DNA of 26,512 nucleotides from a virus (taxonomy: Duplodnaviria; Heunggongvirae; Uroviricota; Caudoviricetes), in the IMG/VR virus record IMGVR_UViG_2698536335_000001, positions 1 to 26,512 of that record, one strand, 5' to 3'. Shown piece by piece: positions 155 through 25,280 of the stretch. Within the stretch, counting starts at the first letter, position 1; every line of letters begins with the position of its first letter. The translations under genes and the position numbers were made by a program. The notes under the pieces were generated by a model that worked only from the letters and a program-made list of their open reading frames with translations, made no database searches and was not told where the DNA came from.

Positions 155-334
155 ATGAATAAAATGGTGAGTAATATTATCATTTCTTTTATTTTATTTG
201 TTACTATAGTGGTGTTATTGTTTTTTATTCTTGAGATAAAAGATTTAATTATCAATTACTATGTCTTTTTATTAATACCTGCATTATGCGTACTGGCTGC
301 ATTCAAGATTATTAAGGAAAGAGTAAATGTTTGA
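155..334 (+). CDS. small hydrophobic membrane peptide, 59 aa (MNKMVSNIIISFILFVTIVVLLFFILEIKDLIINYYVFLLIPALCVLAAFKIIKERVNV); absent from the ORF track
   Basis: ATG at 155 preceded by AAGAGG (143-148); two hydrophobic helices; TGA at 332-334 overlaps the ATG (327) of the next gene. Confidence 0.45.
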   Translation: MNKMVSNIIISFILFVTIVVLLFFILEIKDLIINYYVFLLIPALCVLAAFKIIKERVNV

Positions 335-1409
335 AACATATTTAACGTATAACACAATTCTTTTGTGTGGCGTATTAATATCATCAATCATTTGTTTTAT
401 TAATAGTGGTAAAGGCGTGGTTTACTTGCTATTATTTATGGCCCTTTTTATACCTGCCGCCATTCGGTACGGAGTTGGTTTAGATTTCTTTAATTATGTT
501 GATATTTTTAACAACCCAGAATATTACCAAGGCCAAATAGAAATAGGATTTTATTTAATTGTAAAGATTCTATCAACCACTGGATTTGGGTATCAAGCAT
601 TATTTGTATTATGCTCAGCGTTAACTGTAATCTTCTTTATGCTTTCAATAGAAAGAGATTCAGCATGGGCTTCTGTATTGATTTTCATATGCACTCTTTA
701 CCTGTCATCCTATTGTTTGTTAAGACAAGCTTTAGCGGTTAGTATTCTGATGTATAGTTGTAGACTATGGATTAATGATAAAAAATTAAATTCTATTATC
801 ATTATGCTGATTGCATGCTCAATGCATTACTCTGCCATACTTTTTGCTCCTTTATTGATAGCGTCCAGTGTATTCAGGCTTACTACGCTTCGTACATTAT
901 TTATAATGGGGTTTATTTCTATATTTGTTTTTGCGCTTCATGGTGTTGATTTGATATTTAATAATGAAATGTTTTTAAATTCAAAATATGGCTCATATGT
1001 TTCTTCTGGTTTCAATAAAGAAACTCAAATCGGAACCGGAGTTGGGGTTATAATACAAATATTAATTCCTGTATCCGTTGCTTTAATGGCGAATAGAATT
1101 TTAGAAATCAATAATAGATACAACATTGTGATATTCACAACGACTGCATTTTTTGCATCTTATCTACTTGCGACTCAAGTATATATATTTGGAAGAATGG
1201 CAGATGTTTTCTCTTTTTCTTTGGTTTTTGCTGCGCCTATTCTTCTTAGGTCAGCAAAAAGCAATATATCAAAGATAGTTTTTGTTGGTATGATTTGTCT
1301 TTACGTTCCTGTCATGCAGGCCACAATAGCAAATAATAACTTTAAAGCCAACGAACTTTCTGGTTCTGGGCTTGGGATATCTCCTTATAAAACTGTTTTT
1401 GATAAATAG
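327..1409 (+). CDS. polytopic membrane protein, EpsG/Wzy-like polysaccharide (O-antigen) polymerase candidate
   Basis: 360 aa with about ten hydrophobic segments; RYGVGLDFFNY resembles the EpsG-family R-x-x-G-x-D-x-x-x-Y signature (from memory); AT-rich codon usage; AAGGA RBS at 314-318. Confidence 0.65.
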   Translation: MFETYLTYNTILLCGVLISSIICFINSGKGVVYLLLFMALFIPAAIRYGVGLDFFNYVDIFNNPEYYQGQIEIGFYLIVKILSTTGFGYQALFVLCSALTVIFFMLSIERDSAWASVLIFICTLYLSSYCLLRQALAVSILMYSCRLWINDKKLNSIIIMLIACSMHYSAILFAPLLIASSVFRLTTLRTLFIMGFISIFVFALHGVDLIFNNEMFLNSKYGSYVSSGFNKETQIGTGVGVIIQILIPVSVALMANRILEINNRYNIVIFTTTAFFASYLLATQVYIFGRMADVFSFSLVFAAPILLRSAKSNISKIVFVGMICLYVPVMQATIANNNFKANELSGSGLGISPYKTVFDK

Positions 1410-1460: not shown

Positions 1461-3725
1461 TCAGATCCTCTGAGTACCAGCAAGAATGACATCAAAAGCA
1501 GCGTAGCTTAACGTTGCCGGGTTTATGACTGCCCCTGATGCATCCTTAACTTTTATAATCACTGAAGTACCCCCATCCAAGACGGCCATGTATGAGTGTA
1601 TTGTGTCAACTGTAGGGCTCGCTATTACGTGGGTTTTAGTATACCAGTTCTTCTTTATTGGTATCCTGATGCAAGGGACTGCTGTATCAATAACTGGTGT
1701 TCCAAACACACTACTTCCATATGATGTAGATAACACGCCTGCCGTGAAAGTGAAACTGCACAGATCCATTCCAACAGGATTTACTTGTGAAGAGTTGCTT
1801 CCATAAGCGCTTCCTGCACCGACAGATTTAAAGTTGGTTACAGCTTCAGGGTTTCTAAGTGTTAGAATGTGAGGAACGCTTGTAGTATCCTCTTCTCTTA
1901 GCATTGCTATAGCTGGCACAGCCGAATCATTCATTAATGCCATACCCTGCGCTTCTTCTCCATATACAACGCTCCAAAAATCAACTAATTCCCCAGTGTA
2001 TTTGAACACATATATACCGTTATCGGAAAGGAAGTGGATAAATCCACCGTGCGCAACCATACCTTGAGGATTTCCATCAAATGAAGCGACAGGATACTCA
2101 AAGGAACTAATTAGTTGCTTGGAATTAATATCAATAATTGAGAAAAATTCATTTGGTGAACCAACTTTCCCAGTTGCAAGAACAAGCAAATCATGCTCAT
2201 TATCGATGCTGATGGTTGCTCCCATGCCGTACTGAGTTAAATCCCATGTTTCTGTAATTGATTTTCCATCAGTAGCAAGGATGTAAACTTCAGCATCAAA
2301 TTCTGAACCACCAGAGCTTACATATACTCTACCATCTAATTTACGCCATGCAGCGGAACTTGCATGTTTTAAAGGCAGTGTAACCTGACCATATGAGTTA
2401 TCAACGCTACCGTCTCTTTCATATCTAAACACTTGTCCGTTAACACCACCAATATCATATCCAACTATGAATTTTCCAATGGAGAAATCATACGCTAATC
2501 CTTGTGGTCTTTTTTGAGTACCAGTTGTTGGGACGGAAGTGATAGTAAATTCATAAAATCTTCTAAAAACATCGTTATCACCAAACGCCCCCCCTCTTCC
2601 TGGTGCAAGAATGCTATTTGCTCTTGGGTTGCTGTAATTTCCAGCCATTATAACTTTAGCACCCGAAACAGAAGAAATACCGCTAGTTCCGTCTGGTACA
2701 TATATGACACCCGAGGCAAGCATTGTTGGACCAGAAAGCGTTAATGGAAGTGAATATTTTTTTGATGCTGACAGCGCAGATTCTATAGCGTGAGTATCAT
2801 CATCTATACCATTTCTTTTTGCTCCGAAAAACTCAGGAGCTACATCATTGCACTCTCTCTTCCATCTATTACCACCAGATGTAACTATTGTTACGCCGTC
2901 ATCATCAATAGTTGTTGAATCAGTATTGTCGTAATAAAAGTAACCACCTCCAGTACCAGATCCTAATGTATGCTCTAAAACAAATATTCTTTGCTGTGTA
3001 TTTGTTGGTTCTATATTGCGTAAATTAGAAATGGAAGCACAATTGCCAATAAGTTTTAAGCCATCACTTGCTGCTAGCTGAATCATTACATCGGATGCAG
3101 ATCCAGACTGTGGAAGGACCATAATAGGATTACCATTGTCATCCATCGCTACCACTTTGTTTTTACGATTCTCAGCATCAGGCAAACTTGGTATTGGCTC
3201 AGGCGTTCTAAGAGTACGACCTAGATTTGTATTAGCAAGTTTATCGACATAATTTTTAGTCGCTGCATCCTGAGGGCGCGAAGGATCACGCAGGTTTCTG
3301 ATGTAGTTGTTAATAGCGTCATAATAATTCGCCACAAAAGATGGCTTACGAAGAGCAAGTGAAAACCAACTTCTTACCTGCTGGATCAGCATCGTTAGCT
3401 TATCAAACGCGTCCTCGTGCACCTCAGCAAAAAACTTACCCTGGTTTCTAAGATCTGTTTCCTGAGTAACCGGTAGTTCTCGCAATATGGAAATCTGATA
3501 ACCATTAGCCAGTGCCTTCGACAGAATTACATTGCCACCGTTATACCCTCCCGCACCAGTGACTGTGTAATCAGTATCAAGATCCAGCACAGTGATATTC
3601 TCGTCAAGGTCAATCACCTGCACTACTAAATCAGATTTATTGAAAACCCTAAAGGTATAAGGGAATGATGTCGTAACGCCGTTACCGGTGTATTCGTTGT
3701 GGTTAACTTCGGTTGAGACCGTCAT
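1461..3725 (-). CDS. tailspike / tail fibre protein, 754 aa
   Basis: N-terminal ~150 aa resemble the T7 gp17-type tail-attachment domain (by recall); long Gly/Ser/Thr/Asn-rich C-terminal part typical of beta-helical receptor-binding domains; GGAGA RBS; last gene of the virion operon. Confidence 0.8.
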   Translation of the reverse strand: MTVSTEVNHNEYTGNGVTTSFPYTFRVFNKSDLVVQVIDLDENITVLDLDTDYTVTGAGGYNGGNVILSKALANGYQISILRELPVTQETDLRNQGKFFAEVHEDAFDKLTMLIQQVRSWFSLALRKPSFVANYYDAINNYIRNLRDPSRPQDAATKNYVDKLANTNLGRTLRTPEPIPSLPDAENRKNKVVAMDDNGNPIMVLPQSGSASDVMIQLAASDGLKLIGNCASISNLRNIEPTNTQQRIFVLEHTLGSGTGGGYFYYDNTDSTTIDDDGVTIVTSGGNRWKRECNDVAPEFFGAKRNGIDDDTHAIESALSASKKYSLPLTLSGPTMLASGVIYVPDGTSGISSVSGAKVIMAGNYSNPRANSILAPGRGGAFGDNDVFRRFYEFTITSVPTTGTQKRPQGLAYDFSIGKFIVGYDIGGVNGQVFRYERDGSVDNSYGQVTLPLKHASSAAWRKLDGRVYVSSGGSEFDAEVYILATDGKSITETWDLTQYGMGATISIDNEHDLLVLATGKVGSPNEFFSIIDINSKQLISSFEYPVASFDGNPQGMVAHGGFIHFLSDNGIYVFKYTGELVDFWSVVYGEEAQGMALMNDSAVPAIAMLREEDTTSVPHILTLRNPEAVTNFKSVGAGSAYGSNSSQVNPVGMDLCSFTFTAGVLSTSYGSSVFGTPVIDTAVPCIRIPIKKNWYTKTHVIASPTVDTIHSYMAVLDGGTSVIIKVKDASGAVINPATLSYAAFDVILAGTQRI

Positions 3726-3778
3726 GTTAAATCTCCAGATAGTCGCAGCACCCGTTGCGCCGCATATCCGATTATTCT

Positions 3779-3845
3779 ATTACCTGAAAAACCATATATG
3801 GATAGGTAGACCATGAATACAAACAGATATTACCTTTCAGGTAAT
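3779..3845. promoter_or_regulatory. pair of inverted 11-mers ATTACCTGAAA (3779-3789) and TTTCAGGTAAT (3835-3845); the second is part of the 17-bp palindrome ATTACCTTTCAGGTAAT (3829-3845)
   Basis: Read directly in the intergenic region upstream of the tailspike gene; the same 17-mer recurs at 20444-20460. Confidence 0.35.
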
Positions 3846-3881
3846 TTGCAAAACGTGCTGGATAGCAAACAAATTATTTGA

Positions 3882-3901
3882 TACTGTATAAATATACAGT
3901 T
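3882..3901 (+). promoter_or_regulatory. LexA (SOS) box TACTGTATAAATATACAGTT
   Basis: CTGT (3884-3887), 8-nt AT-rich spacer, ACAG (3896-3899); 18 of 20 positions match the E. coli consensus TACTGTATATATATACAGTA; 20 bp upstream of the ATG at 3921. Confidence 0.7.
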
Positions 3902-3920
3902 ATTGCATGGAGAAGATAAG

Positions 3921-4178
3921 ATGCAGCAGTATCACTATCCACTGGAAGACGGATTTACCGAAAGGATTCACACGCCGGGAGGCGTCAGGTCACTGGTGGA
4001 GGGATCGCACTTGATGAAATTACTCCGGGATCTCGATAAGGATGGATTTAATGTCGATGGCCCACTTGCCGAACTGACTGCACTGATTAACTACGTCACC
4101 AGCTCACAGATGTCTATGCAGGATCTGCAAACACATCTCGACTATTGTGCCAAACAATTACGAAAACAAATCACATAA
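3921..4178 (+). CDS. SOS-regulated hypothetical protein, 85 aa, acidic (MQQYHYPLEDGFTERIHTPGG...)
   Basis: ATG at 3921 with GGAGA RBS (3909-3913); the track start at 3903 is a TTG extension; LexA box immediately upstream; convergent with the virion operon. Confidence 0.6.
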   Translation: MQQYHYPLEDGFTERIHTPGGVRSLVEGSHLMKLLRDLDKDGFNVDGPLAELTALINYVTSSQMSMQDLQTHLDYCAKQLRKQIT

Positions 4179-4200
4179 AGAAAAGGCCGCGAAAGCGGCC
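4171..4200 (-). terminator. rho-independent terminator ending the minus-strand ejection-protein transcript
   Basis: ggccgc-gaaa-gcggcc hairpin (4185-4200) followed on the minus strand by TTTTCTTTAT (4171-4184). Confidence 0.55.
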
Positions 4201-4220
4201 TGTGACATGTCACGCTCACG

Positions 4221-4361
4221 TTATGACAAGCCTATGTACCCTGCTACACCAGATAATATCAAAATAACTGCAACAGCAAATTCGCCATCGTCAATGATAC
4301 ATTTACGGTTCATAACGCCAAGTGCAACAAGCGCAAACACAACAAGAATAAAAGCAATCAT
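4221..4361 (-). CDS. small hydrophobic protein, 46 aa (MIAFILVVFALVALGVMNRKCIIDDGEFAVAVILILSGVAGYIGLS); absent from the ORF track
   Basis: ATG at 4361 preceded by AAGGA, directly after the TAA of the upstream gene; two hydrophobic segments; followed 20 nt later by the terminator at 4171-4200. Confidence 0.35.
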   Translation of the reverse strand: MIAFILVVFALVALGVMNRKCIIDDGEFAVAVILILSGVAGYIGLS

Positions 4362-4370
4362 TTCTCATCC

Positions 4371-6845
4371 TTATTGCGGAGTGACATCCTGTGGTCGCCA
4401 CCAGTATGTCTGGTTAAACTCTTTCTTCGAACGTTGCTCCATTTTATGCAAATAACCTGGTGAAAAATACTCCTGCATCTGGTTAAAGATCATGTGATCG
4501 AGAGCCGCCTTTAAGTACCAGAGATTCGCACCTGGCATCAGACCTTTCCCCAGCTTAACCAGATCACCACCAGTCTGCTCATTCTTCCCTTCCACAGCAT
4601 TTAACGGTATACCCTGAGCAATCTTCACTACGTCATCAACCAGACCAGCTACCGGGCCAAGCATCGACGCCAGCGCGCCGCTTCCGTACCTAGTGTGATC
4701 TGACAATAAAAAGTCACCGTAAAGGCCAAGACCACCACCTTTCAGTAGAGCACCAAGCCAAAATTTAGCAGCATCTTCTCCTGTCATCTCGCGAGGATTA
4801 CGACCAGACGCAAGGTCGTTAAGTTGCTGCGACAAAGCGCCAAGAATGGTCGTACTGGCAATAAACGTCGCAATATATGCCGCACGCCCACCAGCAGACG
4901 GCATACCCATAGCGCGTGACCAGTGACGCATAACAACCGAGATAGGGAACGATTTAAACAGGAAAACACTTCTCGTTAATTCACCTTTCCATGTTCCACG
5001 CTGAATACCAGAACCGGTTATCAGTTGCTCACGTGCTCCCGGTGTAATAACAGCCATATCAATTTCTTCAGTTACGGCACCGAGCAGTTTACGCATTGCC
5101 TCAAATTTCACGCGTTCAGGTTCACCAAGATGTTTAACTGCTGAATCAGGGATACGCATAATGCTTTCCGGTGTCAGCATCGTATTATTACCGTTCCCCC
5201 AGTCCTCCTGTTGCGCCAGCTTCCATACGCTCCAGTCTGTGTCAGTAATCCCTTTGCTTTTCAGGATACGAAAATCAGAGTCATCGAGGCTACGAAGGTC
5301 TGGTGTCCGTGACACTACTTCTCCCAGGCTTCCCATCATGGTTACGCCATAGGCGCGCTTGTGCGCATCTGACCATGCTGTAAGCCCACTGGCACGCATT
5401 ACCGCCGTTGCCGCCCAACGAGACACTGACGGCCCCATATTATCCATCGCCCATCGGTTAACGCTGCCAAGTAGAGATTCCATCGCCAGACCAGCGCGGC
5501 GCGCCCGCGCAAGTTCTGTACGGTTCGTTGGGTCCATAGCTTCAAGCTGGTTGCGGAATAACTGGTTCATTGGAAGGTTGGTAACCTTCGCAGACAGATA
5601 CATGGTTCCAAGATCAGAGAACGATGACAGCAACGCGGATCCGAGTCTGCTGGCAACCAGCCAGTTGCGGATATTGTCAGACCATCGCGCGATGTGCGGA
5701 TTCGCTACAGGCTGTGTCTTTCCGGAAATAAAGTTGTACAGATTCTCTGTGTTGTTCGCCAGCCGCTCGACTTTACCGGTTTTACTCGGGTTAGCTGTTG
5801 CCGTTTCTGCCTTCACCTGATCAAGAAGAGAGCGGAAAACATGATCGGGGTTTGGGCCATATGTTTCCACCAGTGCAATATCTTTACTGATACCTTCCAG
5901 GTGACCGACCATGATTTCCCATAGAGAGCGATCGCCATAAAGTTGCTGATATTGCAGATAGGAATCTGCATCTTTGAAATGTATCTGTCGTGATGCATTA
6001 CCACGGTTAGCACGTGCGCCGGAAATTCGCATTCCGGTATCAGTAAGCTTATTCAGCCCACCAGTAGCGATCGTGTTATAAGCCTCTCCAAGAAATGCAG
6101 ACAACTCAGCATCGTTCATCAGTTGTCCATCGGCTCGGGTATAATATTTGCGATCCAGCTTACCTATAACATCGCTAACCCACTTATCCTTTGATACCGC
6201 CCCAACCTTTTCCATAGAATGATGTTGAGGGATCCCCCAGTTTTCGAGATAGCCAATGTCCCCACCAGCATCATTAAACCGGCGGCGCAGTAGCTCTGTC
6301 ACTTCTCTCCACGCCTTAGCACCTTTTCTTGCTTTAGCATTGCCCGTATTTTGCCCTCGCATTTCATATACCAGGTCACGCACGCCAGCTTCATCTTCAA
6401 ACAGGCCAAAAAAGCGAGGATCAACTGCTTCAAATGCCTCCTGCAATTGACTCAATGCATAATCACGAGTGGCTTTTGTTCTGGACTCAACAGAGAGGAA
6501 ATTCGATTTACCGTCTGCATTAAAAGCAATAGTACGGTTAAGAGCGCCAAGTTTCCCATCAGCCCCTTGATAGCTATTGATAAATTTATCCAATCTCTGA
6601 CGTGCGGCTATAGTGAGGGCCACACGACGTTTCTTTAATGCCGCTTCTCGCTGTAATTCTTCAGATGCCAATTGTGCTGCACGATATAGCCGCTCTGATT
6701 CGGAAAGTTGTCTCCACGACATCGGGTCATCACGAGCAATGGAGCGCATATTTCGATAAATGCGGTCTTCAATGTTCTGTATTTCTCGCGCCGTTAACGT
6801 GCGCTGCGCCGCCTGCTGGACCGCTTGTATACATTCCTGTCTCAT
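4371..6845 (-). CDS. internal virion / ejection protein (T7 gp16-position), 824 aa
   Basis: Large protein in the position between tail tubular genes and tail fibre, as in T7-like gene order; RBS present. Confidence 0.75.
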   Translation of the reverse strand: MRQECIQAVQQAAQRTLTAREIQNIEDRIYRNMRSIARDDPMSWRQLSESERLYRAAQLASEELQREAALKKRRVALTIAARQRLDKFINSYQGADGKLGALNRTIAFNADGKSNFLSVESRTKATRDYALSQLQEAFEAVDPRFFGLFEDEAGVRDLVYEMRGQNTGNAKARKGAKAWREVTELLRRRFNDAGGDIGYLENWGIPQHHSMEKVGAVSKDKWVSDVIGKLDRKYYTRADGQLMNDAELSAFLGEAYNTIATGGLNKLTDTGMRISGARANRGNASRQIHFKDADSYLQYQQLYGDRSLWEIMVGHLEGISKDIALVETYGPNPDHVFRSLLDQVKAETATANPSKTGKVERLANNTENLYNFISGKTQPVANPHIARWSDNIRNWLVASRLGSALLSSFSDLGTMYLSAKVTNLPMNQLFRNQLEAMDPTNRTELARARRAGLAMESLLGSVNRWAMDNMGPSVSRWAATAVMRASGLTAWSDAHKRAYGVTMMGSLGEVVSRTPDLRSLDDSDFRILKSKGITDTDWSVWKLAQQEDWGNGNNTMLTPESIMRIPDSAVKHLGEPERVKFEAMRKLLGAVTEEIDMAVITPGAREQLITGSGIQRGTWKGELTRSVFLFKSFPISVVMRHWSRAMGMPSAGGRAAYIATFIASTTILGALSQQLNDLASGRNPREMTGEDAAKFWLGALLKGGGLGLYGDFLLSDHTRYGSGALASMLGPVAGLVDDVVKIAQGIPLNAVEGKNEQTGGDLVKLGKGLMPGANLWYLKAALDHMIFNQMQEYFSPGYLHKMEQRSKKEFNQTYWWRPQDVTPQ

Positions 6846-6850
6846 TTAAT

Positions 6851-8653
6851 TTAACCTCTCAAGAAACACGCCACAGCGACATCAAACAGGCTGGAATCCT
6901 GTATTGCCTGCTCACTTTCCCTGTTCGCTTCATCCAGTACTTCACGCGCGCTGCGCGATTGTGGATTACCATCATCATCCAGCACGGTGATTATCATGTC
7001 AGGTGATTCAAGTAGCGAGTCTTCAGCTATGCGCAGATCAATATCTCCTGCCTGATCCGCCATCATTTTTTGTTCTGCCTGTTGCAATATTTTATCAGGC
7101 TCAAAAGGAGCTACTTCGTCTGGCGTCCTGACCTCTGCTGTTTTATAGAATGAAACAGCCTGAGCATTAAGTTCACTTTCTGCCTGCTGTCTCCGAGCCA
7201 GTTCTGCTCGAGCTTCAAAAAACTGACCGCCAGGCTCATGCGGTGCCAACGCGTTACGAGAAAATTCCAGGCGTTCTTGTGCCTGCCGGATTCGTTGGTC
7301 AATATCGCGAAGTCTGGCCTGTTTATCTGATCGAGCACGAGACAAAGCTTTACCGCTACCGGTTGGCTCTTCTGCAAGAATTTGTGCACGCTGTTCAGTG
7401 AGATTTTCAATAATTCGTTGGCTATTAGCGATTTCAGACTGGTAAACCTGTCTATCTCCACGCGGCAAAAGCTGCGCGGCCTGTTCTTCAAGCAACCGAT
7501 TTTCTATAGCGCGCGCCGTTACTCCATCATCTACAGATGACAGAGCCTCATTAACTGCCTGAGACAGCAGACTCTTGCGCCTAGGAATTTCACTGAAAGA
7601 TGCAGACTCAACAATGCTGGCAACGTCTACAGGTCTCCCCTGGCTAACATCAGACATAGCTTTTCGCAGAGCCTGAATGTGAGAATTGCGCGAAAGCACG
7701 TTGATCGGCACGCCGGGCGCAATATCAATTTCAGCATGATGAGCGGCATTCGCCGCCAGTGCAGCATCGATATCAACTGGTGAAAAATTTGGTGCGTTTG
7801 TAGACTCGCCGCGAGAGTTAATAAATCTGCCGACACCACCAAACGCCACCCCAAGAACAGCATCAATAGCAATTGCCTGTCGATCCAACACATCATACTG
7901 GTTAGCCATTTCGCTATAGCCACCATCACGAAGCGTTTTTGCAGTAAGCCCACGCTGTGCCATACCGAACGCAATATTTGTACCTGCGGCATAGGCAATA
8001 TCTGGCGTTGCACGTACTGCTGTTGCTGCGGCGCGTCGCACTGAACTCTCACCAGTCCGCGCAAGCTGAGCCGCCACACCTTCCGCCAGCGCACCACCAG
8101 CACGTAACCCGAGGCTCATAGGGATCAGTGTTCCGGCACCAGCAGTAATGCCCTGCACTAATCCCGCTTCCTGCGCCGTCCTGAAATCAACACCCTGTGC
8201 TGTCAGCCGTTCAAACTCAGAAAAACCCTGTAGCGAAGTTACCGCCGCTGCACCTCCGACAGGACCACCGAGCGTTGTACCGACAACAGCCTGCCCGCCC
8301 ATATCGAACAACCCATAAAGAACCTGCCCGGCGGTTCCGGTTGTCGCGGCATCAGGCGTCAGCCGCTTAACCTGCTGCTCTGCTAGTTTTCTCTGCTCGG
8401 CAATGTATGAAACTGAAGTATCATTGAGCGAGGTGTTTTCGTTAATAAACTGAGCAATCGGGGATACGATTTTATCCATCCCTGCCCATAGCAACTGATC
8501 TGGCTTTGCCACCAGCCCGGAGTACAAACCAGACAATGCCGCTCCTACAGCATTGTCGAAAAAACCAACATCGCTGTTAAAGCCCGCTGGATTTGATGCT
8601 GCTTCGTCAAGTTGCTGATTCTGGTTTACTGGATTAAGGCCAAAGTAACTCAT
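6851..8653 (-). CDS. internal virion protein, Gly/Ala-rich N-terminal half, coiled-coil-like C-terminal half, 600 aa
   Basis: Composition and position in the ejection-protein block; start overlaps the stop of the upstream gene. Confidence 0.75.
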   Translation of the reverse strand: MSYFGLNPVNQNQQLDEAASNPAGFNSDVGFFDNAVGAALSGLYSGLVAKPDQLLWAGMDKIVSPIAQFINENTSLNDTSVSYIAEQRKLAEQQVKRLTPDAATTGTAGQVLYGLFDMGGQAVVGTTLGGPVGGAAAVTSLQGFSEFERLTAQGVDFRTAQEAGLVQGITAGAGTLIPMSLGLRAGGALAEGVAAQLARTGESSVRRAAATAVRATPDIAYAAGTNIAFGMAQRGLTAKTLRDGGYSEMANQYDVLDRQAIAIDAVLGVAFGGVGRFINSRGESTNAPNFSPVDIDAALAANAAHHAEIDIAPGVPINVLSRNSHIQALRKAMSDVSQGRPVDVASIVESASFSEIPRRKSLLSQAVNEALSSVDDGVTARAIENRLLEEQAAQLLPRGDRQVYQSEIANSQRIIENLTEQRAQILAEEPTGSGKALSRARSDKQARLRDIDQRIRQAQERLEFSRNALAPHEPGGQFFEARAELARRQQAESELNAQAVSFYKTAEVRTPDEVAPFEPDKILQQAEQKMMADQAGDIDLRIAEDSLLESPDMIITVLDDDGNPQSRSAREVLDEANRESEQAIQDSSLFDVAVACFLRG

Positions 8654-11163
8654 TGCGGAATATCTCCGGAGAATCTCTGACGCTTCTGTGTCAGATCAAG
8701 AACAACAGGAGAACCATCATCTTTCAGCAGATAACCAGTACCAAGTTTCACCAGGTACTGACTATCGCCGTAACTTTGCAAACCATACTGACCAGGCGGT
8801 GTTTTTATCCCGGTGCCGACAACTTGTTCATTCCAAGCCTGATTAACCTGCTTATCGAATTGCTCTGCAGACATTCCCCACGGCAAAAGGACATTCCCCA
8901 TTCCGTTATAGTCATGCACGCCACCTGTAGCTACGTTAACAGCCTGTTTCCAGATATCAGTGTCAATTTCGCCTGATACCACGCCTTTTTTCGCCATCAC
9001 ACCAGCGTAATAGTCCTTTGCGATCTCGTATGCCATTGATGCCCCCTGAGCATCACCAGCAAATGCATCCTTCACCATGTCAGAAAACTCAAGGCGAAGA
9101 TCAGCATCTTTAGGCATCGGAATACCTTTCGCATCATCAGTACCTTTACGAGCCGCCGCGCCAGCAAGAATTGTCTGCGCAGCGGTTTCAGGAGACACGG
9201 AAACATCCGGATTAAACCAGTTTTTTTCTGCCAAAATACCACCAGGCTTGTCCATCAGTATCCCGGCAACGGCAGCAGATGGAGCGTTGGCACTGATCTG
9301 CTGTAGTGCTGACATATACACCTGCCCACCACCAGTGCTCTGCCTGATGGTATCGAGATATGCTGCCTGTTGGGAAACTGGAGCATCACGAAAGAAAACA
9401 CCGATCTGATTGGCCTCGTCTTTGGAAAAGAACGTCAGTGGAGTGCCATATGACTTAGCAAGGTCACTGACCTGAGCGGCACGCAAGGCAACGCTCTGTC
9501 CAAAGTTATCCTTATTGCTCATGTCGATAGGCTTTGCCTGTCCGGAGGAAAGAGAGAACTGCACAGGATCCGACTGCCGCTGCTTTATCACCTGATTTGC
9601 AGCCGAAACAACGTTGTCATAAAGAGCTGCGCGTGCCGCATACCCCTCCCCTGTATCACCAGTATCCGGGCGTAATTGCTCAACATATTCTGTAATGCTG
9701 CTTGTCGGCATGTTGCGGAAAGAGCCTATATACTGTCCGGCGATCTGCGTATTTCTGAACTCGGTATATCGCAGGTTTCCTTCTCTGACGCCATAAGCTG
9801 CAATAAAATCATCCTCACCAGGTGGGTTAGGAAATTCAACGCCACGCATATACGCAGCCGTCGCATCGCGAACCTTGCTGTCAATTATCGTTTTATATTC
9901 AGCCTGCTGCTGCCGACGCAGTTGATCCGCCTGTCGCATAAAACTTGCCTGAGCCTCAGGAGATGCCGCATCGAATGCTGCATTACCGGTATAGCGTTTG
10001 GTGTTGGTTGGAATTGTTGATAAACCAAGTGCTGCACTAACACCAGCAGTTAACTGCTGATCACTGTATGGCTGACTACCGTTCTCATGATGGATAATGG
10101 CTGCACAAAGCGCCTTCAGGGTATCAGGATTTGATGCATCGAGAGGCTCATCAGCAGAAACGCCAAGTTGTTCGCACACTGCTTTGATATACGACATAGT
10201 GTCATTTTTATCAGTAGGCGGTGCCCAGCGATTAATTATCTCGCTGACGGTATCGATACCCTGCCGCTGATACGACATCAGGTTACGCCCTAATGCACGA
10301 ATCCCGTGCTCAGGTGTTTCGAATTTAGCAAATCGACCATCATCACCGGTCTGGCCTACCCACGGATTAGTTTTGCTGTATTCGAGATTTCCTGGGTTAT
10401 TGTTGCGTATGCCACGGGCACGCTCGGAAGAGTCACTATCTGCTACAGCACGGCGAGCTCCAGCAGCAGTATCACTTAACTCGCCATTACTTTGGATGAA
10501 TGCGGTCGCATTGTTTGCCGACCACTGGGACAATGCGGCATCAGCAACCTTCTCTTTAAACTCGATTTTCTTGGCCTGGATTTGCTCGTCGCTCCAGCCA
10601 TGCGCAATGCCATAATCCTCAATTTGCTGGAAAGTTTGCTTATTAGCCAATACGTATGCGGCGTTGTCGCCATACAATGCTGCGGCATTTTTACCATTGT
10701 TCAGCAGCGTCGCCTGAAACTGGCCTTCTTCGTAGGCATTTATTTGCCCTATCTCGTGCCGCCCGGCCTGCGTAGTGAACTGAATGCGCTGCTGCTGCGC
10801 CTGCTGCATGAAAGCATTACGAGCCTGTTCATCCGGCAGCGACATAGCCAGTTGCTCGACCTGAGCATCAAACTGCTGCGTATACTCCTGACCTTTTCCA
10901 ATAGCATTTTTCCCTTTCAGGTTAAGCAAACCTGTTTCAGGGTTATTCAGCAGATCGCTGCTTATCTGGCTTAAGCTAAGAGAAGCATCCTGAGCCATAG
11001 CAACATTCGCACGCTGTTTTGCCTGCGCAATAATACCTGCATATTGCTCTGCAACATCGCCAAGTACATCACCGACATTTGGTGTCTGAAACGATGAGAA
11101 TCCCTGCGTCGAAATCCCTCTGCTCTGAACCTGACGGCCCGATGTTGTTGGTACAACTGGCAT
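8650..11163 (-). CDS. internal virion / ejection protein, 837 aa
   Basis: Position and size; contains the segment GIRNNNPGNLEYSKTNPWVGQTGDDGRFAKFETPEHGIRALGRNL, which I cannot assign. Confidence 0.75.
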   Translation of the reverse strand: MPVVPTTSGRQVQSRGISTQGFSSFQTPNVGDVLGDVAEQYAGIIAQAKQRANVAMAQDASLSLSQISSDLLNNPETGLLNLKGKNAIGKGQEYTQQFDAQVEQLAMSLPDEQARNAFMQQAQQQRIQFTTQAGRHEIGQINAYEEGQFQATLLNNGKNAAALYGDNAAYVLANKQTFQQIEDYGIAHGWSDEQIQAKKIEFKEKVADAALSQWSANNATAFIQSNGELSDTAAGARRAVADSDSSERARGIRNNNPGNLEYSKTNPWVGQTGDDGRFAKFETPEHGIRALGRNLMSYQRQGIDTVSEIINRWAPPTDKNDTMSYIKAVCEQLGVSADEPLDASNPDTLKALCAAIIHHENGSQPYSDQQLTAGVSAALGLSTIPTNTKRYTGNAAFDAASPEAQASFMRQADQLRRQQQAEYKTIIDSKVRDATAAYMRGVEFPNPPGEDDFIAAYGVREGNLRYTEFRNTQIAGQYIGSFRNMPTSSITEYVEQLRPDTGDTGEGYAARAALYDNVVSAANQVIKQRQSDPVQFSLSSGQAKPIDMSNKDNFGQSVALRAAQVSDLAKSYGTPLTFFSKDEANQIGVFFRDAPVSQQAAYLDTIRQSTGGGQVYMSALQQISANAPSAAVAGILMDKPGGILAEKNWFNPDVSVSPETAAQTILAGAAARKGTDDAKGIPMPKDADLRLEFSDMVKDAFAGDAQGASMAYEIAKDYYAGVMAKKGVVSGEIDTDIWKQAVNVATGGVHDYNGMGNVLLPWGMSAEQFDKQVNQAWNEQVVGTGIKTPPGQYGLQSYGDSQYLVKLGTGYLLKDDGSPVVLDLTQKRQRFSGDIPQ

Positions 11164-11715: not shown

Positions 11716-12179
11716 TATTTTCTCTCCATGTGAAATCTGTGGAAATTAAGACCAAGAGCACCATAAGGCGCGGCTTCTTCAAGCCTGAATCCAAGCCAGT
11801 GCAGCCATGCTTTGGCAACATGGTTTCGCTCGTCGACGTAGTTTTCCAGGCGCGGATAAACTGCCAGCATCTGCTGCAATACAGGGCGGCAGTGGCGAAG
11901 AAATGTCTTCTGATATTTTTCAATACGGCTGGTTCCTACCAGCCAGGGTGTACCATTGCCACCGATCATTGACGCCGGAGATACACCAAACATGGTTACC
12001 AGTTCTCCGTTCGCGAACCCTGACCAAGCCATAGTAGCAGTGCGAAGACCAACACGCAGCGCATCTTCGGTAGTCATCAGCGATACCGCATACAGTTCGT
12101 CAATATCAGCCTGACGAACATCCGGCAAAATCATCTGAAGATGCTCTTCGGTAGCGGGAATAATTTGAACGTCGATCAT
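11715..12179 (-). CDS. hypothetical virion-associated protein (T7 gp13-position), 154 aa
   Basis: ATG overlaps the upstream TGA (TGATG), indicating coupled translation within the operon. Confidence 0.7.
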   Translation of the reverse strand: MIDVQIIPATEEHLQMILPDVRQADIDELYAVSLMTTEDALRVGLRTATMAWSGFANGELVTMFGVSPASMIGGNGTPWLVGTSRIEKYQKTFLRHCRPVLQQMLAVYPRLENYVDERNHVAKAWLHWLGFRLEEAAPYGALGLNFHRFHMERK

Positions 12180-13495
12180 CAGAATCCCCCAACAGTAAGG
12201 CGAGGAATAACGGCAAGAACAGACAGCGGCAACGGGTCAAGCTGACGGATTTTTACACGTCCGTTTTTGCCCCAGTTACTGTCCAGTTTCACTTCTACTT
12301 TTCCGGTAGCATCATCAACAGGATCATCGTAGAACTCGAATTCACGCTGTGGATATTCGTACCATTTACCGCCAGGCGTAGTCGCCCAGATGCCGCGGCT
12401 GGCATTAACAACCAGAGTAACGGAGGGGATCACCTGTTTTTTGTCCAGCAGCGTTTCCTGTCCGTTAATGTTGATATCCAGTGTTTCGAATTCAGCAGTT
12501 ATTGGCAGGCCGATGTGCACTACAGCCCCCGGAGATTCCAGTGTGACGGCACCTCCGGAAACAACTTTCTGTGGCTCAACATTCGCATCAGAAAGAATGT
12601 TTACGGTCTGTCCTTCAAGATGAGACAGGCCTCCAAATGTCCGGCGCGCCATCTGCCAGTTCGTGGTGGCCGTATTCCTGAGGGATGGCGGGACGTTCCT
12701 GTTGGCACGAACCACTACAGCGGTATTGCTGGTTACAGAAATAATGTCGCAACGTAATTCTTTTGACACTTCATCGCCAGTATCAGGATCAGTTCCGGCA
12801 TAAGGGAACTGTAGTTGCGCGCCGACATCACTACTGGTGAAGTACGCACCACCAGAAACACTGATTGTATATTCCGCGCGATAATCCCATTCACCAGAAC
12901 CACCAGTGATGATCATCGTTCTGTCAGACGTATTTCTTCCATCATAGCTAAGGCCAGAATCAACAAAGAAAGCATCTTCATCGCTGGTAAATAAACGGCT
13001 GGACAGCCGCTCGATGTATCTCACTGTTTGCCCGTTAACGGTTCGGTTAACGACGAAATACACCGCATCTTCATTGCCTTCGCTGATACTGCATGTGCTT
13101 TCATATTTTCCGGTACTGGATTGTGGTGCCCATGCAAAAACCTGCTGATCACGCAAATAGGTCATCACCAGTAATTTACCGTCATCACGAATGCAGAAGG
13201 CGCTGGAGTAAGGGACAATAGAGAAGCACCAGTCAACAATGCTGTGCTTCTGAAAAAGATGATTGGCAAGGATGGTCAGGTCGTTCCCCTGATAGCCGTC
13301 AACATCGAATGAGTAGGCCAGATCACGGACAACACTGCCTTTCTCCTGGACGAACAGAGCAATATTCGCCACGGCAATTGGTGGGACATTGCTCGAGCCA
13401 TTTGATCCCTGAGAGCTGAATGCAAATGATGATGGGGTTAATACTTTGTTCTGGTCGCCGGTGATGACGTACTCACCTCCAGAAGTCAGCGCCAC
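12179..13495 (-). CDS. tail tubular protein B-like (nozzle), C-terminal portion; GTG start or frameshifted continuation of 13486-14649
   Basis: No ATG for the first ~110 codons, no clear RBS, begins 10 nt before the stop of the upstream ORF in another frame; position as T7 gp12. Confidence 0.65.
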   Translation of the reverse strand: MALTSGGEYVITGDQNKVLTPSSFAFSSQGSNGSSNVPPIAVANIALFVQEKGSVVRDLAYSFDVDGYQGNDLTILANHLFQKHSIVDWCFSIVPYSSAFCIRDDGKLLVMTYLRDQQVFAWAPQSSTGKYESTCSISEGNEDAVYFVVNRTVNGQTVRYIERLSSRLFTSDEDAFFVDSGLSYDGRNTSDRTMIITGGSGEWDYRAEYTISVSGGAYFTSSDVGAQLQFPYAGTDPDTGDEVSKELRCDIISVTSNTAVVVRANRNVPPSLRNTATTNWQMARRTFGGLSHLEGQTVNILSDANVEPQKVVSGGAVTLESPGAVVHIGLPITAEFETLDININGQETLLDKKQVIPSVTLVVNASRGIWATTPGGKWYEYPQREFEFYDDPVDDATGKVEVKLDSNWGKNGRVKIRQLDPLPLSVLAVIPRLTVGGF

Positions 13496-14649
13496 CAGCG
13501 AACCAACATCATCAGGTGGCGGATCTCATTAACCTGACGCCCGGCATAGGTGTAGATAATTCTGTCGTCATCCTGCGTAGGATTGCTTTTGCCAAAATCC
13601 TTATAATCCCCAGTACGGCTGGCCCAGATAGTCTGAGGGAACGCAGTCGATGCGGCGAAGTAAAGACGTTGTTGATAATAAACAACAGTGCCAGGATAAC
13701 CGTTAATACTGTTCCAGGCATATTTAGCCCATTTATAGCTGGCATTATCCTCGCCAACTACCTGCGAAGGGATATAGGAAATCACCTCGGCAGTTGCAGT
13801 AGTTCCATTTGCAGCAGAGATACGGGCAATGCCAAAACCACTGTGCAGATATTCCCACTCAATGCCAGTATCATCATCACCGGATCCGCCCCAGCCATCC
13901 CATGATGTGCCTTCTGTATGCGAAGGGCGCAAAGTACCTGTTTTGCCTGCTGTAACGGCGCGATAGTAGTTACTGTCTGCACGGCGAATATCGCCAATCG
14001 ACGTACTCTTACTGGTTTCCCATACCGGCACTGAATCCACTGCAGGCTGTTCCAGATAGAACAATTTGCCTACCTGCTCCGCGCCAAAAATAGAGGCGCT
14101 TGCCGTTAACGTAATTGTCCCGGTGCTGGCGCTGGCATAAACCGTCACTGACTCGTCAATATTGATATCTTCAAATGGCCCGTTCTTCGTTACCACATCA
14201 ACCAGTTGCCAGTTGTCATGCGCATAGCGGCGCAACTCTTTCGGCGGGTATGCCGGGTGAACCAGCGTAAGCACGTCGGCGCTTTGCGTGAATTTAATTC
14301 GGAACAGATCGGCTTCAGTATATGGCGTGGCAATTTCATAAATAACATTGCTGCTGTTCAGCACCAACGCACCATCTTTGATAACGCGCATGTACTGGTG
14401 TCCGAACTCCAGAGCATAAGTCTGAACCGTCGAGAACTGGAACGGGATCAGACGGCATTTCCGATTTGGGTATTTGGCGGCACCGACAAAACGCGTACCA
14501 GGTCGATTCTCAACGCCGCCATACTGCCGCACGATAAAGTTATCGCACTTGCGCAAAGCCACCTGGTACTTCGCCATGTCGATACGACCGTACAACGACG
14601 GTCCAATCTCACCACCGGCAAAGCTGGGCTGGATCCAACTGATAGCCAT
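13486..14649 (-). CDS. tail tubular protein B-like (nozzle), N-terminal portion
   Basis: ATG overlaps the stop of the gp11-like gene (ATGA); combined length with 12179-13495 is about 825 aa, close to T7 gp12. Confidence 0.65.
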   Translation of the reverse strand: MAISWIQPSFAGGEIGPSLYGRIDMAKYQVALRKCDNFIVRQYGGVENRPGTRFVGAAKYPNRKCRLIPFQFSTVQTYALEFGHQYMRVIKDGALVLNSSNVIYEIATPYTEADLFRIKFTQSADVLTLVHPAYPPKELRRYAHDNWQLVDVVTKNGPFEDINIDESVTVYASASTGTITLTASASIFGAEQVGKLFYLEQPAVDSVPVWETSKSTSIGDIRRADSNYYRAVTAGKTGTLRPSHTEGTSWDGWGGSGDDDTGIEWEYLHSGFGIARISAANGTTATAEVISYIPSQVVGEDNASYKWAKYAWNSINGYPGTVVYYQQRLYFAASTAFPQTIWASRTGDYKDFGKSNPTQDDDRIIYTYAGRQVNEIRHLMMLVRWWR

Positions 14650-15611: not shown

Positions 15612-15627
15612 GTCTGATCCGCGAGGC

Positions 15628-15963
15628 TTACACGCCCAGTTCTTTACGCTTATCTGCGATCTTCTCGCGGAGCGTTTCGGCTTTGGCGTTATGGTGTGGC
15701 TTCTCGTTAAAGAGCAATTCGTACTCTTCACGGAGCTTATCCAGTTCACCATCATCTGACACATCGTTGATGATTTTGGTGCTGGTTGCTGCCATTGACA
15801 CCTTTCCTGCAACTTTTGCTTTTGCCTGTCTGGCTGCATCGTTAACAGGTTCCAGTGCGCTACCAGGCTCACCTTCGTATTCGATTTCTACCCCCTCCGG
15901 CCACAGTGTGTTATGGATATGAGAGAGGCGCAGAACGCGGTATCTTGGTTTCTCACCTGACAT
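15628..15963 (-). CDS. hypothetical structural protein, ~111 aa
   Basis: ATG at 15963 with AAGGTGA RBS; the track start at 15972 is a GTG extension. Confidence 0.6.
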   Translation of the reverse strand: MSGEKPRYRVLRLSHIHNTLWPEGVEIEYEGEPGSALEPVNDAARQAKAKVAGKVSMAATSTKIINDVSDDGELDKLREEYELLFNEKPHHNAKAETLREKIADKRKELGV

Positions 15964-15973
15964 CGATATCACC

Positions 15974-16411
15974 TTAACCAGTTACTTTTGAGCGGATCGG
16001 GTACGGCGTATTGGCATCAACATCAAGACTGATACCCGCAGTGAATTCGCCAGCCGTTAGTGGGCCAGTTGCGACGGAGTAGTTAACACGCAGATATCGC
16101 TGAACACCGGCAGGCACCTTTGCAGAAACAACTCGTTTACCTGCTGTCAGGGCGGTCTTTGCCAGTGCACCACTATCATAAATAGTGGTCCATGAGCTGT
16201 TATCCTCACTCGTCTGCAACTGGATGTTTACAGTTGCATCACCGCTTGCTGCGGCGGCTGTGTTAACCAGCGCCCAAAACTCAAGCGGGTAACCCACGCC
16301 GATATCACGACGTTTTCCGTCAATTGGACCGAGATCGATTACGTCAGTAGAAGCGGCGGTATTCGTAACCGCCTGAGCTTCGGAGAACATCAACAGTTTG
16401 TCGGTGATCAT
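15974..16411 (-). CDS. hypothetical structural protein (possible capsid decoration or minor capsid protein), 145 aa
   Basis: Immediately downstream of the major capsid gene; GGAGA RBS; Ala/Thr/Gly-rich. Confidence 0.6.
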   Translation of the reverse strand: MITDKLLMFSEAQAVTNTAASTDVIDLGPIDGKRRDIGVGYPLEFWALVNTAAAASGDATVNIQLQTSEDNSSWTTIYDSGALAKTALTAGKRVVSAKVPAGVQRYLRVNYSVATGPLTAGEFTAGISLDVDANTPYPIRSKVTG

Positions 16412-16462
16412 CTTCTTTCTCCATTAGTGGGCCTGTTGCGACCCACAGGTTAATAACAGGCG

Positions 16463-20355: not shown

Positions 20356-20423
20356 ATCAATGACTCCGTACGCAATTAAATTATTACCAATTTAACCACA
20401 TATGATTTATTTATCGTAGATAG

Positions 20424-20461
20424 TTGACATTTAACGCACAAATTATTACCTTTCAGGTAAC
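20424..20461 (+). promoter_or_regulatory. candidate promoter (TTGACA at 20424-20429, 17-bp spacer, TACCTT) overlapped by the 17-bp motif at 20444-20460
   Basis: Perfect -35 hexamer read directly; the -10 is weak; the 17-mer TATTACCTTTCAGGTAA is identical to the copy at 3828-3844. Confidence 0.3.
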
Positions 20462-20782: not shown

Positions 20783-20859
20783 GTGGCATTAGCTCAGTTG
20801 GACAGAGCAACCGCCTTCTAAGCGGTTGGTCGCAGGTTCGAATCCTGCATGCCACGCCA
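20783..20859 (+). tRNA. tRNA-Arg, anticodon TCT (reads AGA), 77 nt with encoded CCA
   Basis: Hand-folded cloverleaf: acceptor GTGGCAT/ATGCCAC, D arm GCTC/GAGC, anticodon stem ACCGC/GCGGT with loop CTTCTAA, T arm GCAGG-TTCGAAT-CCTGC; similar to but distinct from E. coli argU as I recall it. Confidence 0.9.
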
Positions 20860-23000: not shown

Positions 23001-23593
23001 TGATTACCATCCTGACGTTCTTTGAGTCGCTTCCTGGCTGCTGCTATGCGATCAGCAATTGTCACATTCACATTAACATCCAGGCGTTCTTTGAATGCGT
23101 TGACGTCGACGTGCTTACCAATCAGTTCGAGGTTCTTCACCTTGTCAGGCCATTTAATTTTTTTGAGGATTGTCTCTATCGAATCCTCGTTCATGTTCAT
23201 GATGGTCGATGACAGATCAAAGCCGCTAAGCGTAGTGCGCCAGATTTTCGGCCACTCGCGGATTGGCTTAAGGCTCCCATCGTCGTTGAGGATGTCGATC
23301 ACGTCCATCTGGTCGATCTCCACCAGGCGCATGAGAACGTAATCAGCACTGACGCGCATTCGTTTGTTGCGCTCCTCCATCAACTCGGCAATCCGTTTTT
23401 GAATGCGTTCATCGCGCATCATGACACTGGCTTTAACTGCCGCTGTATTTGGGGAGAATCCTGCATTAATCGCTGCCTGAGTCTGGTTTTCAGGCGTTTT
23501 GATGTATGACTGGCAATAAGCCTCCTGCATTGCTGTTAGTGGCTTAAATTGCGTTGATTTGCGTTTATAGGTTTTAGGTTCAGCAGGCATCAT
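22997..23593 (-). CDS. terminase small subunit, ~198 aa
   Basis: Immediately upstream of and overlapping the large subunit; helix-rich basic protein; ATG at 23593 (track start 23671 is a TTG extension running through a terminator and tandem repeat). Confidence 0.65.
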   Translation of the reverse strand: MMPAEPKTYKRKSTQFKPLTAMQEAYCQSYIKTPENQTQAAINAGFSPNTAAVKASVMMRDERIQKRIAELMEERNKRMRVSADYVLMRLVEIDQMDVIDILNDDGSLKPIREWPKIWRTTLSGFDLSSTIMNMNEDSIETILKKIKWPDKVKNLELIGKHVDVNAFKERLDVNVNVTIADRIAAARKRLKERQDGNQ

Positions 23594-23596
23594 AAC

Positions 23597-23632
23597 CACC
23601 GTGGTAATAGTTACCGTTGTGGTAATAGTACC
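23597..23632. repeat. tandem direct repeat, two copies of ~18 bp, core GTGGTAATAGT at 23601-23611 and 23619-23629
   Basis: Read directly: accgtggtaatagttaccgttgtggtaatagtacc, between the terminator and the terminase small-subunit start. Confidence 0.5.
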
Positions 23633-24351: not shown

Positions 24352-25085
24352 CACTTCACCTCCTGCGGCGGTTCCGGTAGCGGCATCCAGTGAGTTGCTT
24401 GCTCAATACCATTACCCGGCTTAATCGTTGCATCTCCGCGCCGAAAGGTGCTTCCGGTATAGCGTGCGGAGCATATTAGCGGTTCAACCAGAGAGCTATC
24501 GAAATTCACCGAAATAAGCACGTTCTGGCCCTTTTCAGGCATTCGATCACTACAGCTTATCCAACTATCCGGAGTTCCCGGAGAGTTGCCATTTACATCG
24601 AAGTTTGGCTCTGCGTCCTGAACCAAGAGGATGTAACCATTCTTGGCTGTATCAAGTTCTAACGCTTCGGTGACGGTGCCGAAATAGCGATTACCTAAAT
24701 CAGCATCACAAGTGCTTATATCAATGGAAACTTCCATGCCTTCGATTAATTCTGGCAAGTTGTAAGTTTGGCTTACAGGTTGGCTACCCTGAAGCATGGC
24801 GGCGCGGTGACACCAGATAATCCAGCCAAGCGCCATATCCCATGCCATGTATTCTCTATCGCCATTTTTTGCCCTACGGCGATCTACAGATTCCCCGAAA
24901 CGCTTCTCCATAAATAATTCATAGGCTGCTCGTTCATCCGATACTGCTGCCAGTGATGCCAGTGCAATTTTTAATGCGGTAAGCATGTTGTTTTGATCTT
25001 CATCGAGTCCGAACGGTATTTCATCCCGTGCTGACTCAATGCTGGTAATCGTGTTCTGTAACCATTCTTTGGTAAGAGTATTCAT
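24351..25085 (-). CDS. nin-region-type protein with DUF551-like C-terminus (…HWMPLPEPPQEVK), 244 aa
   Basis: C-terminal W-x-P-L-P-E-P-P motif recalled from DUF551 proteins of lambdoid phages; N-terminal ~15 aa shared with gene 25281-25748. Confidence 0.65.
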   Translation of the reverse strand: MNTLTKEWLQNTITSIESARDEIPFGLDEDQNNMLTALKIALASLAAVSDERAAYELFMEKRFGESVDRRRAKNGDREYMAWDMALGWIIWCHRAAMLQGSQPVSQTYNLPELIEGMEVSIDISTCDADLGNRYFGTVTEALELDTAKNGYILLVQDAEPNFDVNGNSPGTPDSWISCSDRMPEKGQNVLISVNFDSSLVEPLICSARYTGSTFRRGDATIKPGNGIEQATHWMPLPEPPQEVK

Positions 25086-25087
25086 AA

Positions 25088-25279
25088 CTATTTCACCTTA
25101 ATCTCAACATTTCGCAGCTTTAGCTCTACTGGCAAGTCTGACTTTCCTGTTAATGCTAATGCGAGATTTTCAGGAGTAATGAGAGCTGTTATTGTTTTCC
25201 CCATCGCCAGACGAATAATCATTCGTATCTCGCGATCGTCACATGCTCCCGGTCGAACAATTGATATTTGTCCGTTCAT
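25088..25279 (-). CDS. hypothetical protein, 63 aa
   Basis: ATG at 25279 with AAAGGAGAG RBS, one nt after the upstream stop; track start 25300 is a TTG extension. Confidence 0.5.
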   Translation of the reverse strand: MNGQISIVRPGACDDREIRMIIRLAMGKTITALITPENLALALTGKSDLPVELKLRNVEIKVK

Positions 25280-25280
25280 C

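Follow-up and report, generated by a model that had tools for sequence, protein, structure and literature searches.

An antirepressor gene, ant, behind a LexA box in an epsilon15/phiV10-like prophage of Escherichia coli

The 85-codon gene that lies antisense between the tailspike and the virion genes in a 26,512-nucleotide stretch of phage DNA, hereafter called the window, is by homology and gene order the ant gene of a Uetakevirus prophage, and the LexA/Ant/Rep system to which it belongs is already known. In this epsilon15/phiV10-like E. coli prophage, Ant relieved from repression by the SOS response very probably inactivates the repressor Rep and thereby induces the prophage. This reading builds on the LexA box upstream of the gene and its conservation, on Ant and Rep being orthologous to the crystallised pair of phage SPC32H, on the gene order, on a Rep lacking an S24 domain and on the co-occurrence of both proteins. 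For the E. coli pair, we infer by analogy with SPC32H that LexA binds the box, that the SOS response induces ant, and that Ant binds Rep and takes its tetramer apart. No new principle is involved, as the circuit and the Ant-Rep structure have been described for SPC32H in 2013 and 2016 (Kim & Ryu 2013, J Virol 87:11775; Kim et al. 2016, PNAS 113:E2480; PDB 5D50, 5D4Z).

The window represents a Uetakevirus prophage

Sequence comparison assigns the window to an epsilon15/phiV10-like (Uetakevirus) prophage of E. coli, related to the epsilon15/phiV10/SPN1S-like podophages. At the DNA level, the ant locus is 94-95% identical to the E. coli phages PAS61 and phiV10 and 79% identical to the Salmonella phages SPN1S, SPC32H and SPC32N. 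The E. coli strains 2013C-4538 and 12089 match a 495-bp query across ant with 100% identity, and this query was found in 544 of the 5,426 complete genomes of the species (about 10%); RefSeq labels the E. coli copy of the gene as 'hypothetical protein'. The prophages of these two strains, which are inserted between guaA and yfgI, match the window with 99.9% identity across 24.2-24.4 kb, and the two best E. coli matches differ from it by 15-17 substitutions and 1-2 indels over this length. Past approximately 24.4 kb (24402-26512), the window no longer matches its two near-identical relatives, save for short patches with 93-94% identity, and the early-gene region with its DUF551 and ead/Ea22-like genes is therefore mosaic.

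A search of the whole window against Rfam yielded a single match, a tRNA gene at 20783-20856 on the plus strand (73 bits) flanked by the portal operon and the terminase genes, which is a tRNA-Arg by annotation of the relatives and of SPC32H. The same search returned no match at the ant locus.

Moreover, we observed two irregularities in the window. Its first 39 nucleotides (1-39) lie inside a frameshifted IS1 located between the phage lysis cassette and an EpsG-family gene; the upstream part corresponds to positions 15618-16314 of locus L003. In addition, a deletion of one nucleotide at approximately 13510 (CAATCA to CATCA), seen in comparison with the two 99.9%-identical prophages, divides a virion gene of 823 aa into two open reading frames. 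Either this deletion truly inactivates the gene by a frameshift, or it reflects an error in the sequence data.

12179-13495 and 13486-14649, minus strand: the split virion-gene reading frames, of 438 aa and 387 aa

The 85-aa product is an orthologue of SPC32H Ant

3921-4178, plus strand: ant, 85-aa antirepressor, orthologue of SPC32H Ant (85 codons, stop codon at 4176-4178)

The antisense gene for an 85-aa protein that had been proposed in a preliminary description of the sequence was confirmed, with its ATG at position 3921 and its stop codon at 4176-4178. Its product matched one solved structure, chain E ('Anti-repressor protein') of PDB 5D50 (E = 2.6e-46, residues 2-85 aligned with residues 3-86), an entry that comprises SPC32H Ant in complex with 'Repressor'. 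Over the full length, 72 of 84 residues (86%) are identical between the two proteins, and the GenBank record of SPC32H names the gene 'ant: anti-repressor protein'. This identity, together with the structure 5D50, supports by homology the earlier suggestion that a small LexA-controlled antirepressor acts as the trigger of prophage induction, and the conservation of the gene order and of the LexA box across the genus lends it further weight.

Among the PHROGs, Ant belongs to phrog_450, which is labelled 'unknown function' (E = 2.6e-47). Homologues were found in 131 clusters of a large protein collection; most of them are labelled 'hypothetical' and a few 'Anti-repressor protein', and their named sources are Enterobacterales apart from two records that are likely mislabelled. 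An alignment of Ant from 8 phages of four host genera contains 42 invariant columns.

The Pfam search assigned Ant to no family. The sole signal, a sub-threshold similarity to DUF724 (17.8 bits versus a cut-off of 38.4) that is likewise given by SPC32H Ant, was judged to be due to chance. At E <= 0.01, Pfam revealed neither a DinI or Tum domain nor any other host-factor domain, and Bro-N, KilAC and ANT domains were likewise not found by Pfam. The product, which had been described as acidic, is mildly so, with a pI of 5.7 and 11 acidic (D+E) versus 8 basic (K+R) residues.

A conserved LexA box precedes ant

3882-3901, no strand: LexA (SOS) box TACTGTATAAATATACAGTT, 18 of 20 consensus positions

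The SOS box reported at 3882-3901 was borne out by our analysis. The sequence TACTGTATAAATATACAGTT deviates from the LexA consensus TACTGTATATATATACAGTA at two positions and ends 19 nucleotides upstream of the ant start codon (ATG at 3921). Within the 26.5-kb window it is the sole site with three or fewer mismatches to the consensus, and 100 dinucleotide-preserving shuffles of the window yielded no LexA-consensus match (0/100). Searched at the same threshold, the whole 40-kb prophage of a 99.9%-identical relative likewise contains no LexA site other than the ant box. Two other matches to CTGT-N8-ACAG in the window, at 16433 and 20975, have GC-rich centres and are far from the full consensus.

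Conservation was followed in an alignment of the tailspike-ant intergenic region from 12 phages of Escherichia, Salmonella, Enterobacter and Klebsiella. The position of the box is identical in all 12 phages, and its AT-rich centre varies freely. Both the CTGT and the ACAG arm are retained in 8 of the 9 non-Klebsiella phages, the exception being SPC32N (AAAG); in the three Klebsiella phages the left arm reads ATGT. The pattern of retained arms and a free centre is that of a site conserved as a LexA box, as judged from the alignment. SPC32N is a clear-plaque sibling of SPC32H, and within 1,254 bp of compared sequence only two bases distinguish these phages; one of the differences is the change from ACAG to AAAG in the LexA box. 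According to a published abstract, this box mutation reportedly renders Ant production constitutive in SPC32N.

The ant promoter may overlap the LexA box

3909-3913, plus strand: Shine-Dalgarno sequence GGAGA, 7 nucleotides 5' of the ATG
3878-3883, plus strand: TTGATA, the -35-like hexamer proposed beforehand, with TATTGC (3901-3906) as its -10 partner
3859-3864, plus strand: TGGATA, candidate -35 hexamer of the ant promoter, suggested by conservation, 17 bp upstream of TACTGT
3882-3887, plus strand: TACTGT, predicted -10 hexamer of the ant promoter, which doubles as the left arm of the LexA box

A GGAGA ribosome-binding site followed by an ATG downstream of the box was found as described, at 3909-3913 and 3921, and the GGAG of the Shine-Dalgarno sequence is unchanged in 12 of 12 aligned phages. 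The promoter proposed in the same description fared less well. Although its TTGATA hexamer is present, TATTGC fits only 3 of 6 positions of a -10 element and lacks the final T, the implied transcription start at approximately 3913 falls inside the Shine-Dalgarno sequence, and SPC32H has CTGTTA and GTTTGC at the corresponding positions. Moreover, a sigma-70 consensus scan of 3600-4500 indicated no promoter at the LexA box. The TTGATA-17-TATTGC assignment was therefore rejected.

As a better-conserved candidate, we suggest TGGATA-17-TACTGT. All 9 non-Klebsiella phages share the hexamer TGGATA unchanged despite its position outside the LexA box, and TACTGT, separated from it by a 17-bp spacer, contains T1, A2 and T6 of TATAAT; the promoter hexamers of ant are weak. 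Transcription from this promoter is predicted to start near 3894, which would keep the Shine-Dalgarno sequence in the mRNA, and LexA bound to the box would cover approximately -12 to +8, that is, the -10 hexamer and the start site.

Neighbouring genes and the downstream hairpin

1461-3725, minus strand: tailspike, 754 aa, divergent from ant (phrog_1640 tail protein, E = 1e-155, N-terminal part)
4221-4361, minus strand: putative membrane protein of 46 aa, whose gene closes the virion operon and is convergent with ant (phrog_7892)
4371-6845, minus strand: 824-aa virion structural protein, convergent with ant (phrog_684, E = 0)
4371-11163, minus strand: large virion proteins (Pfam/PHROGs)
327-1409, plus strand: EpsG-family O-antigen gene (Pfam, E = 5.6e-47)
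4184-4201, minus strand: GC-rich hairpin terminator between ant and the virion operon, with a T-run on the minus strand

The order tailspike (minus), ant (plus), 46-aa gene (minus) and 824-aa gene (minus) is common to the window, SPC32H, phiV10 and epsilon15. The tailspike occupies the position of tsp in SPC32H, and the records of SPC32H and phiV10 list the 46-aa gene as 'putative integral membrane protein'. Both the 46-aa gene (4221-4361) and the 824-aa gene (4371-6845) run towards ant, in agreement with the convergent orientation to virion genes noted before.

At the other side of the tailspike gene, an EpsG-family membrane protein fills the slot that the O-antigen acetylase occupies in SPC32H and phiV10, and this gene (327-1409) is probably a serotype-converting gene of the O-antigen polymerase type. 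The tailspike that is paired with it has a C-terminal part unlike those of the phiV10 and SPC32H tailspikes.

The hairpin downstream of ant (4184-4201) has a stem of 7 bp, of which 6 are GC pairs, and on the minus strand the stem is followed by TTTCTTTATG; its RNA fold has a free energy of -18.2 kcal/mol (z = -3.0). No T-run follows it 3' on the plus strand. In the epsilon15 record, the equivalent stem-loop is given as a rho-independent terminator on the same (minus) strand. The hairpin is thus first of all the element that ends the virion operon, and it may also stop ant transcripts. The insulation by hairpins proposed beforehand needs to be amended: the downstream structure is the terminator of the virion operon, as its minus-strand T-run indicates, and the supposed upstream hairpin (3829-3845) is an operator-like palindrome and no terminator. 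A perfect 12-bp palindrome, GTGACATGTCAC, is located at 4202-4213, flanked on one side by the terminator hairpin and on the other by the 46-aa gene's stop codon, and is retained in SPC32H (approximately 3817-3828 of its locus).

The partner repressor Rep

The rep gene is encoded outside the window, and we infer its presence in this genome from the near-identical relatives, by whose arrangement it would lie about 12-14 kb past the right end of the window. Both 99.9%-identical prophages encode a 194-aa HTH protein, WP_000836290.1, at the site that is syntenic with SPC32H rep. This protein is 42% identical to SPC32H Rep from end to end, matches chain A ('Repressor') of PDB 5D50 with E = 4e-42, and is 100% identical to the Rep of phiV10. 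When the Rep of the relatives was searched against Pfam, HTH domains were the only ones found (HTH_3/HTH_26 in addition to a YdaS-like N-terminal HTH), and there was no Peptidase_S24 (self-cleavage) domain. Judged by this domain content, Rep is putatively not cleavable by the RecA-dependent route.

In a collection of phage genomes, Ant occurs in 35 records and the Rep family in 36, with Rep being present in all 35 records that contain Ant. Between the E. coli and the Salmonella phages Ant is 82-86% identical, whereas Rep is only 42% identical. Considering this low conservation of Rep relative to the 86% of Ant, recognition of this particular Rep by this Ant is therefore assumed, on the grounds of co-occurrence.

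Rep-operator-like palindromes and a candidate tailspike promoter

3829-3845, no strand: perfect palindrome ATTACCTTTCAGGTAAT, putative Rep operator, in the ant/tailspike divergent region
3829-3845, 20445-20461, 23592-23608 and 23610-23626: ATTACC-N5-GGTAAT sites in the window
3774-3802, minus strand: candidate tailspike promoter, predicted, TCCATA (3802-3797), 17-bp spacer, TAGAAT (3779-3774)

The half-sites of the palindrome ATTACCTTTCAGGTAAT are invariant in the 12 aligned phages. The palindrome belongs to a dispersed family, ATTACC-N5-GGTAAT, with 4 matches in the window versus 0.84 expected, 18 versus 1.0 in SPC32H and 12 versus 1.5 in the E. coli relative. The sites are concentrated between rep and cro, on the downstream side of rep, and in front of the terminase, portal, tailspike, lysis and int units. 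In the epsilon15 record, the site equivalent to ATTACCTTTCAGGTAAT is annotated as a protein_bind feature, 'repressor'. In view of the over-representation and clustering of the family and of the epsilon15 annotation, ATTACCTTTCAGGTAAT is therefore most likely a Rep operator, which probably serves the divergent tailspike promoter, and the ATTACC-N5-GGTAAT sites are likely Rep operators spread over the genome. These sites are common to phages whose Reps are only 42% identical, and both Rep types seem to use the same half-sites.

The -10 hexamer of the candidate tailspike promoter is conserved across the phages as TAnAAT or TAAACT. The regions upstream of the tailspike gene (3786-3802, minus strand) and of the portal operon (20384-20402, minus strand) share an architecture in which a full operator, (A/G)TTACCTGAAAGGTAAT, is followed 30-40 nucleotides later by CATAT(A/G)TGGTT-N5-GGTAATA over the likely -10 hexamer. 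This block of a full site and a half-site may represent a common design of Rep-controlled late promoters.

Comparison with known antirepressor systems

The closest counterpart is Ant of SPC32H, a phage of the same genus, Uetakevirus. In both phages, the antirepressor is a protein of 85 or 86 aa (86% identical), the gene lies antisense between the tailspike and the virion genes, the LexA box and the start codon are equally far apart, and Rep (here that of the window's relatives) is a two-HTH protein of a non-cleavable family. In contrast to SPC32H, the host is E. coli, the integration site of the relatives is guaA, Rep is only 42% identical, and the centre of the box reads ATAAATAT rather than ATGTTTAT, which is closer to the consensus. 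Gp24 of phiV10 (96% identical) and gp19 of epsilon15 (82%) share the gene order and the LexA box. In phiV10, but not in the window, ant and the 46-aa gene are separated by an additional Bro-N 'anti-immunity' gene and a small ORF; the phiV10 tailspike is different, and phiV10 encodes oac where the window has EpsG.

An additional Bro-N 'anti-immunity/anti-repressor' gene just downstream of ant is found in phiV10 (4092-4676), Tyrion and a Klebsiella phage, and is missing from the window. Residues 150-180 of the phiV10 Bro-N protein p23 resemble residues 2-32 of Ant (14 of 31 identical, pairwise E = 1e-6), and the N-terminal motif of Ant-like proteins, YxxPLxxGxxxxIHxPxGVxxLxExSxLM, recurs at the C-terminus of Bro-N 'anti-immunity' proteins in phiV10-type phages. 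Likewise, the C-terminal 50 residues of phrog_1760 ('anti-repressor') align with residues 27-77 of Ant (E = 3e-7). The similarities of p23 and phrog_1760 hint at a Rep-binding module in common with Ant. The 'anti-repressor' of the ZX5 paper was considered as a small Ant and rejected, as it corresponds to the Bro-N protein ORF4.

The likeness to Gifsy and 186 prophages drawn in the preliminary description holds for the mechanism and fails for a sequence relationship, since Pfam detected no Tum/DinI, Bro-N or P22 Ant domain. Tum of phage 186 and the Gifsy/Fels-2 proteins GfoA and GfhA are described as products of small LexA-repressed genes that bind and inactivate a non-cleavable repressor (Shearwin 1998; Lemire 2011). 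The regulatory logic of ant is the same; unlike these antirepressors, Ant has no DinI/Tum-type domain according to Pfam and stems from a podovirus. Repressor inactivation by binding is also shared with P22 Ant and the Bro-N/KilAC antirepressors, which in contrast are much larger multidomain proteins; P22 ant is, in the available accounts, under the control of Mnt and Arc and not of LexA.

The proposed induction circuit and its alternatives

In a lysogen, host LexA would sit on the box at 3882-3901, and since this box overlaps the predicted ant promoter, ant would be silent. DNA damage would activate RecA and lead to the self-cleavage of LexA, upon whose loss ant would be transcribed and the 85-aa Ant made. 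Ant would then bind Rep, the two-HTH repressor without a self-cleavage domain, and split the DNA-binding Rep tetramer. Rep would thereby be released from the ATTACC-N5-GGTAAT operators, which would permit lytic gene expression. In SPC32H, tetramer disassembly is said, in a published abstract, to proceed through the C-terminal domain of the repressor.

The template for these steps is SPC32H, where Rep is described as binding DNA as a tetramer and an Ant tetramer as binding two Rep dimers, thus splitting the Rep tetramer; Ant is depicted as acting by a conformational trap and not by occlusion of the DNA-binding surface. According to reviews citing Kim & Ryu 2013, LexA represses ant in this phage, and after the SOS response Ant inactivates the lytic repressor by protein-protein contact. 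In line with a LexA-Ant-Rep circuit, a DNA-damaging microcin raises the induction of phiV10-type prophages of E. coli 21- to 47-fold.

We further considered whether the switch could be intact in a prophage that is itself defective, such that Ant derepresses a crippled element or works in trans on other Uetakevirus-type repressors. The 1-nt deletion at approximately 13510, which splits the 823-aa virion gene, and the frameshifted IS1 between the lysis cassette and the EpsG gene would be compatible with this, as would the much stronger conservation of Ant than of Rep across immunity types; given the frameshift and the IS1 remnant, Ant may therefore flip the switch without phage production. However, the deletion may stem from a sequencing error, given that the gene is intact in the relatives; both of these relatives also contain the same IS1, and other phiV10-type E. 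coli prophages are inducible. We regard a defective prophage as unlikely.

Far less probable still is a role of the protein as an SOS-timed host-manipulation factor, such as a DinI-like RecA modulator or a modifier of cell division or DNA repair, which would not act on the prophage repressor. This alternative had been raised in the preliminary description, and a strong LexA box, a location far from the immunity region and the absence of a Pfam family speak in its favour. Yet the protein is 86% identical to one crystallised on its phage repressor, Pfam revealed in it no domain of the DinI, Tum or another host-factor type at E <= 0.01, and Ant and Rep strictly co-occur in phage genomes; the suggestion is left without support.

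It is equally hard to believe that the LexA-like palindrome serves another protein, with ant being governed mainly by Rep through the adjacent ATTACC-N5-GGTAAT site: a perfect Rep-type palindrome does lie 37 bp upstream of the box, and a predicted -10 hexamer may coincide with the box's left arm, but the 18/20 match to the LexA consensus without a counterpart in the shuffled sequences, the conservation according to LexA rules, the single change in the ACAG arm that sets SPC32N apart from SPC32H, and the placement of the Rep-type site, whose centre precedes both candidate ant starts by some 55-75 bp, a spacing better suited to control of the tailspike promoter, all speak against it.

Implications

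Beyond the LexA/Ant/Rep circuit, Ant could be imagined as a portable inducer of divergent Reps that brings about the cross-induction of co-resident prophages, and the Bro-N proteins as second, LexA-independent antirepressors built around the same Rep-binding peptide; we put this forward as a tentative and rather doubtful extension, prompted by the high conservation of Ant relative to Rep, the operator half-sites common to both Rep types and the Ant-like motif in the Bro-N proteins. The practical gain of the analysis is one of annotation, as it assigns a function to a common E. coli gene that RefSeq labels 'hypothetical protein' and that occurs in roughly a tenth of the complete genomes of this species. 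Acting as proposed, Ant would explain how serotype-converting E. coli prophages of the phiV10 type, among them those found in O157 and other STEC lineages, can sense DNA damage with a repressor that does not cleave itself.
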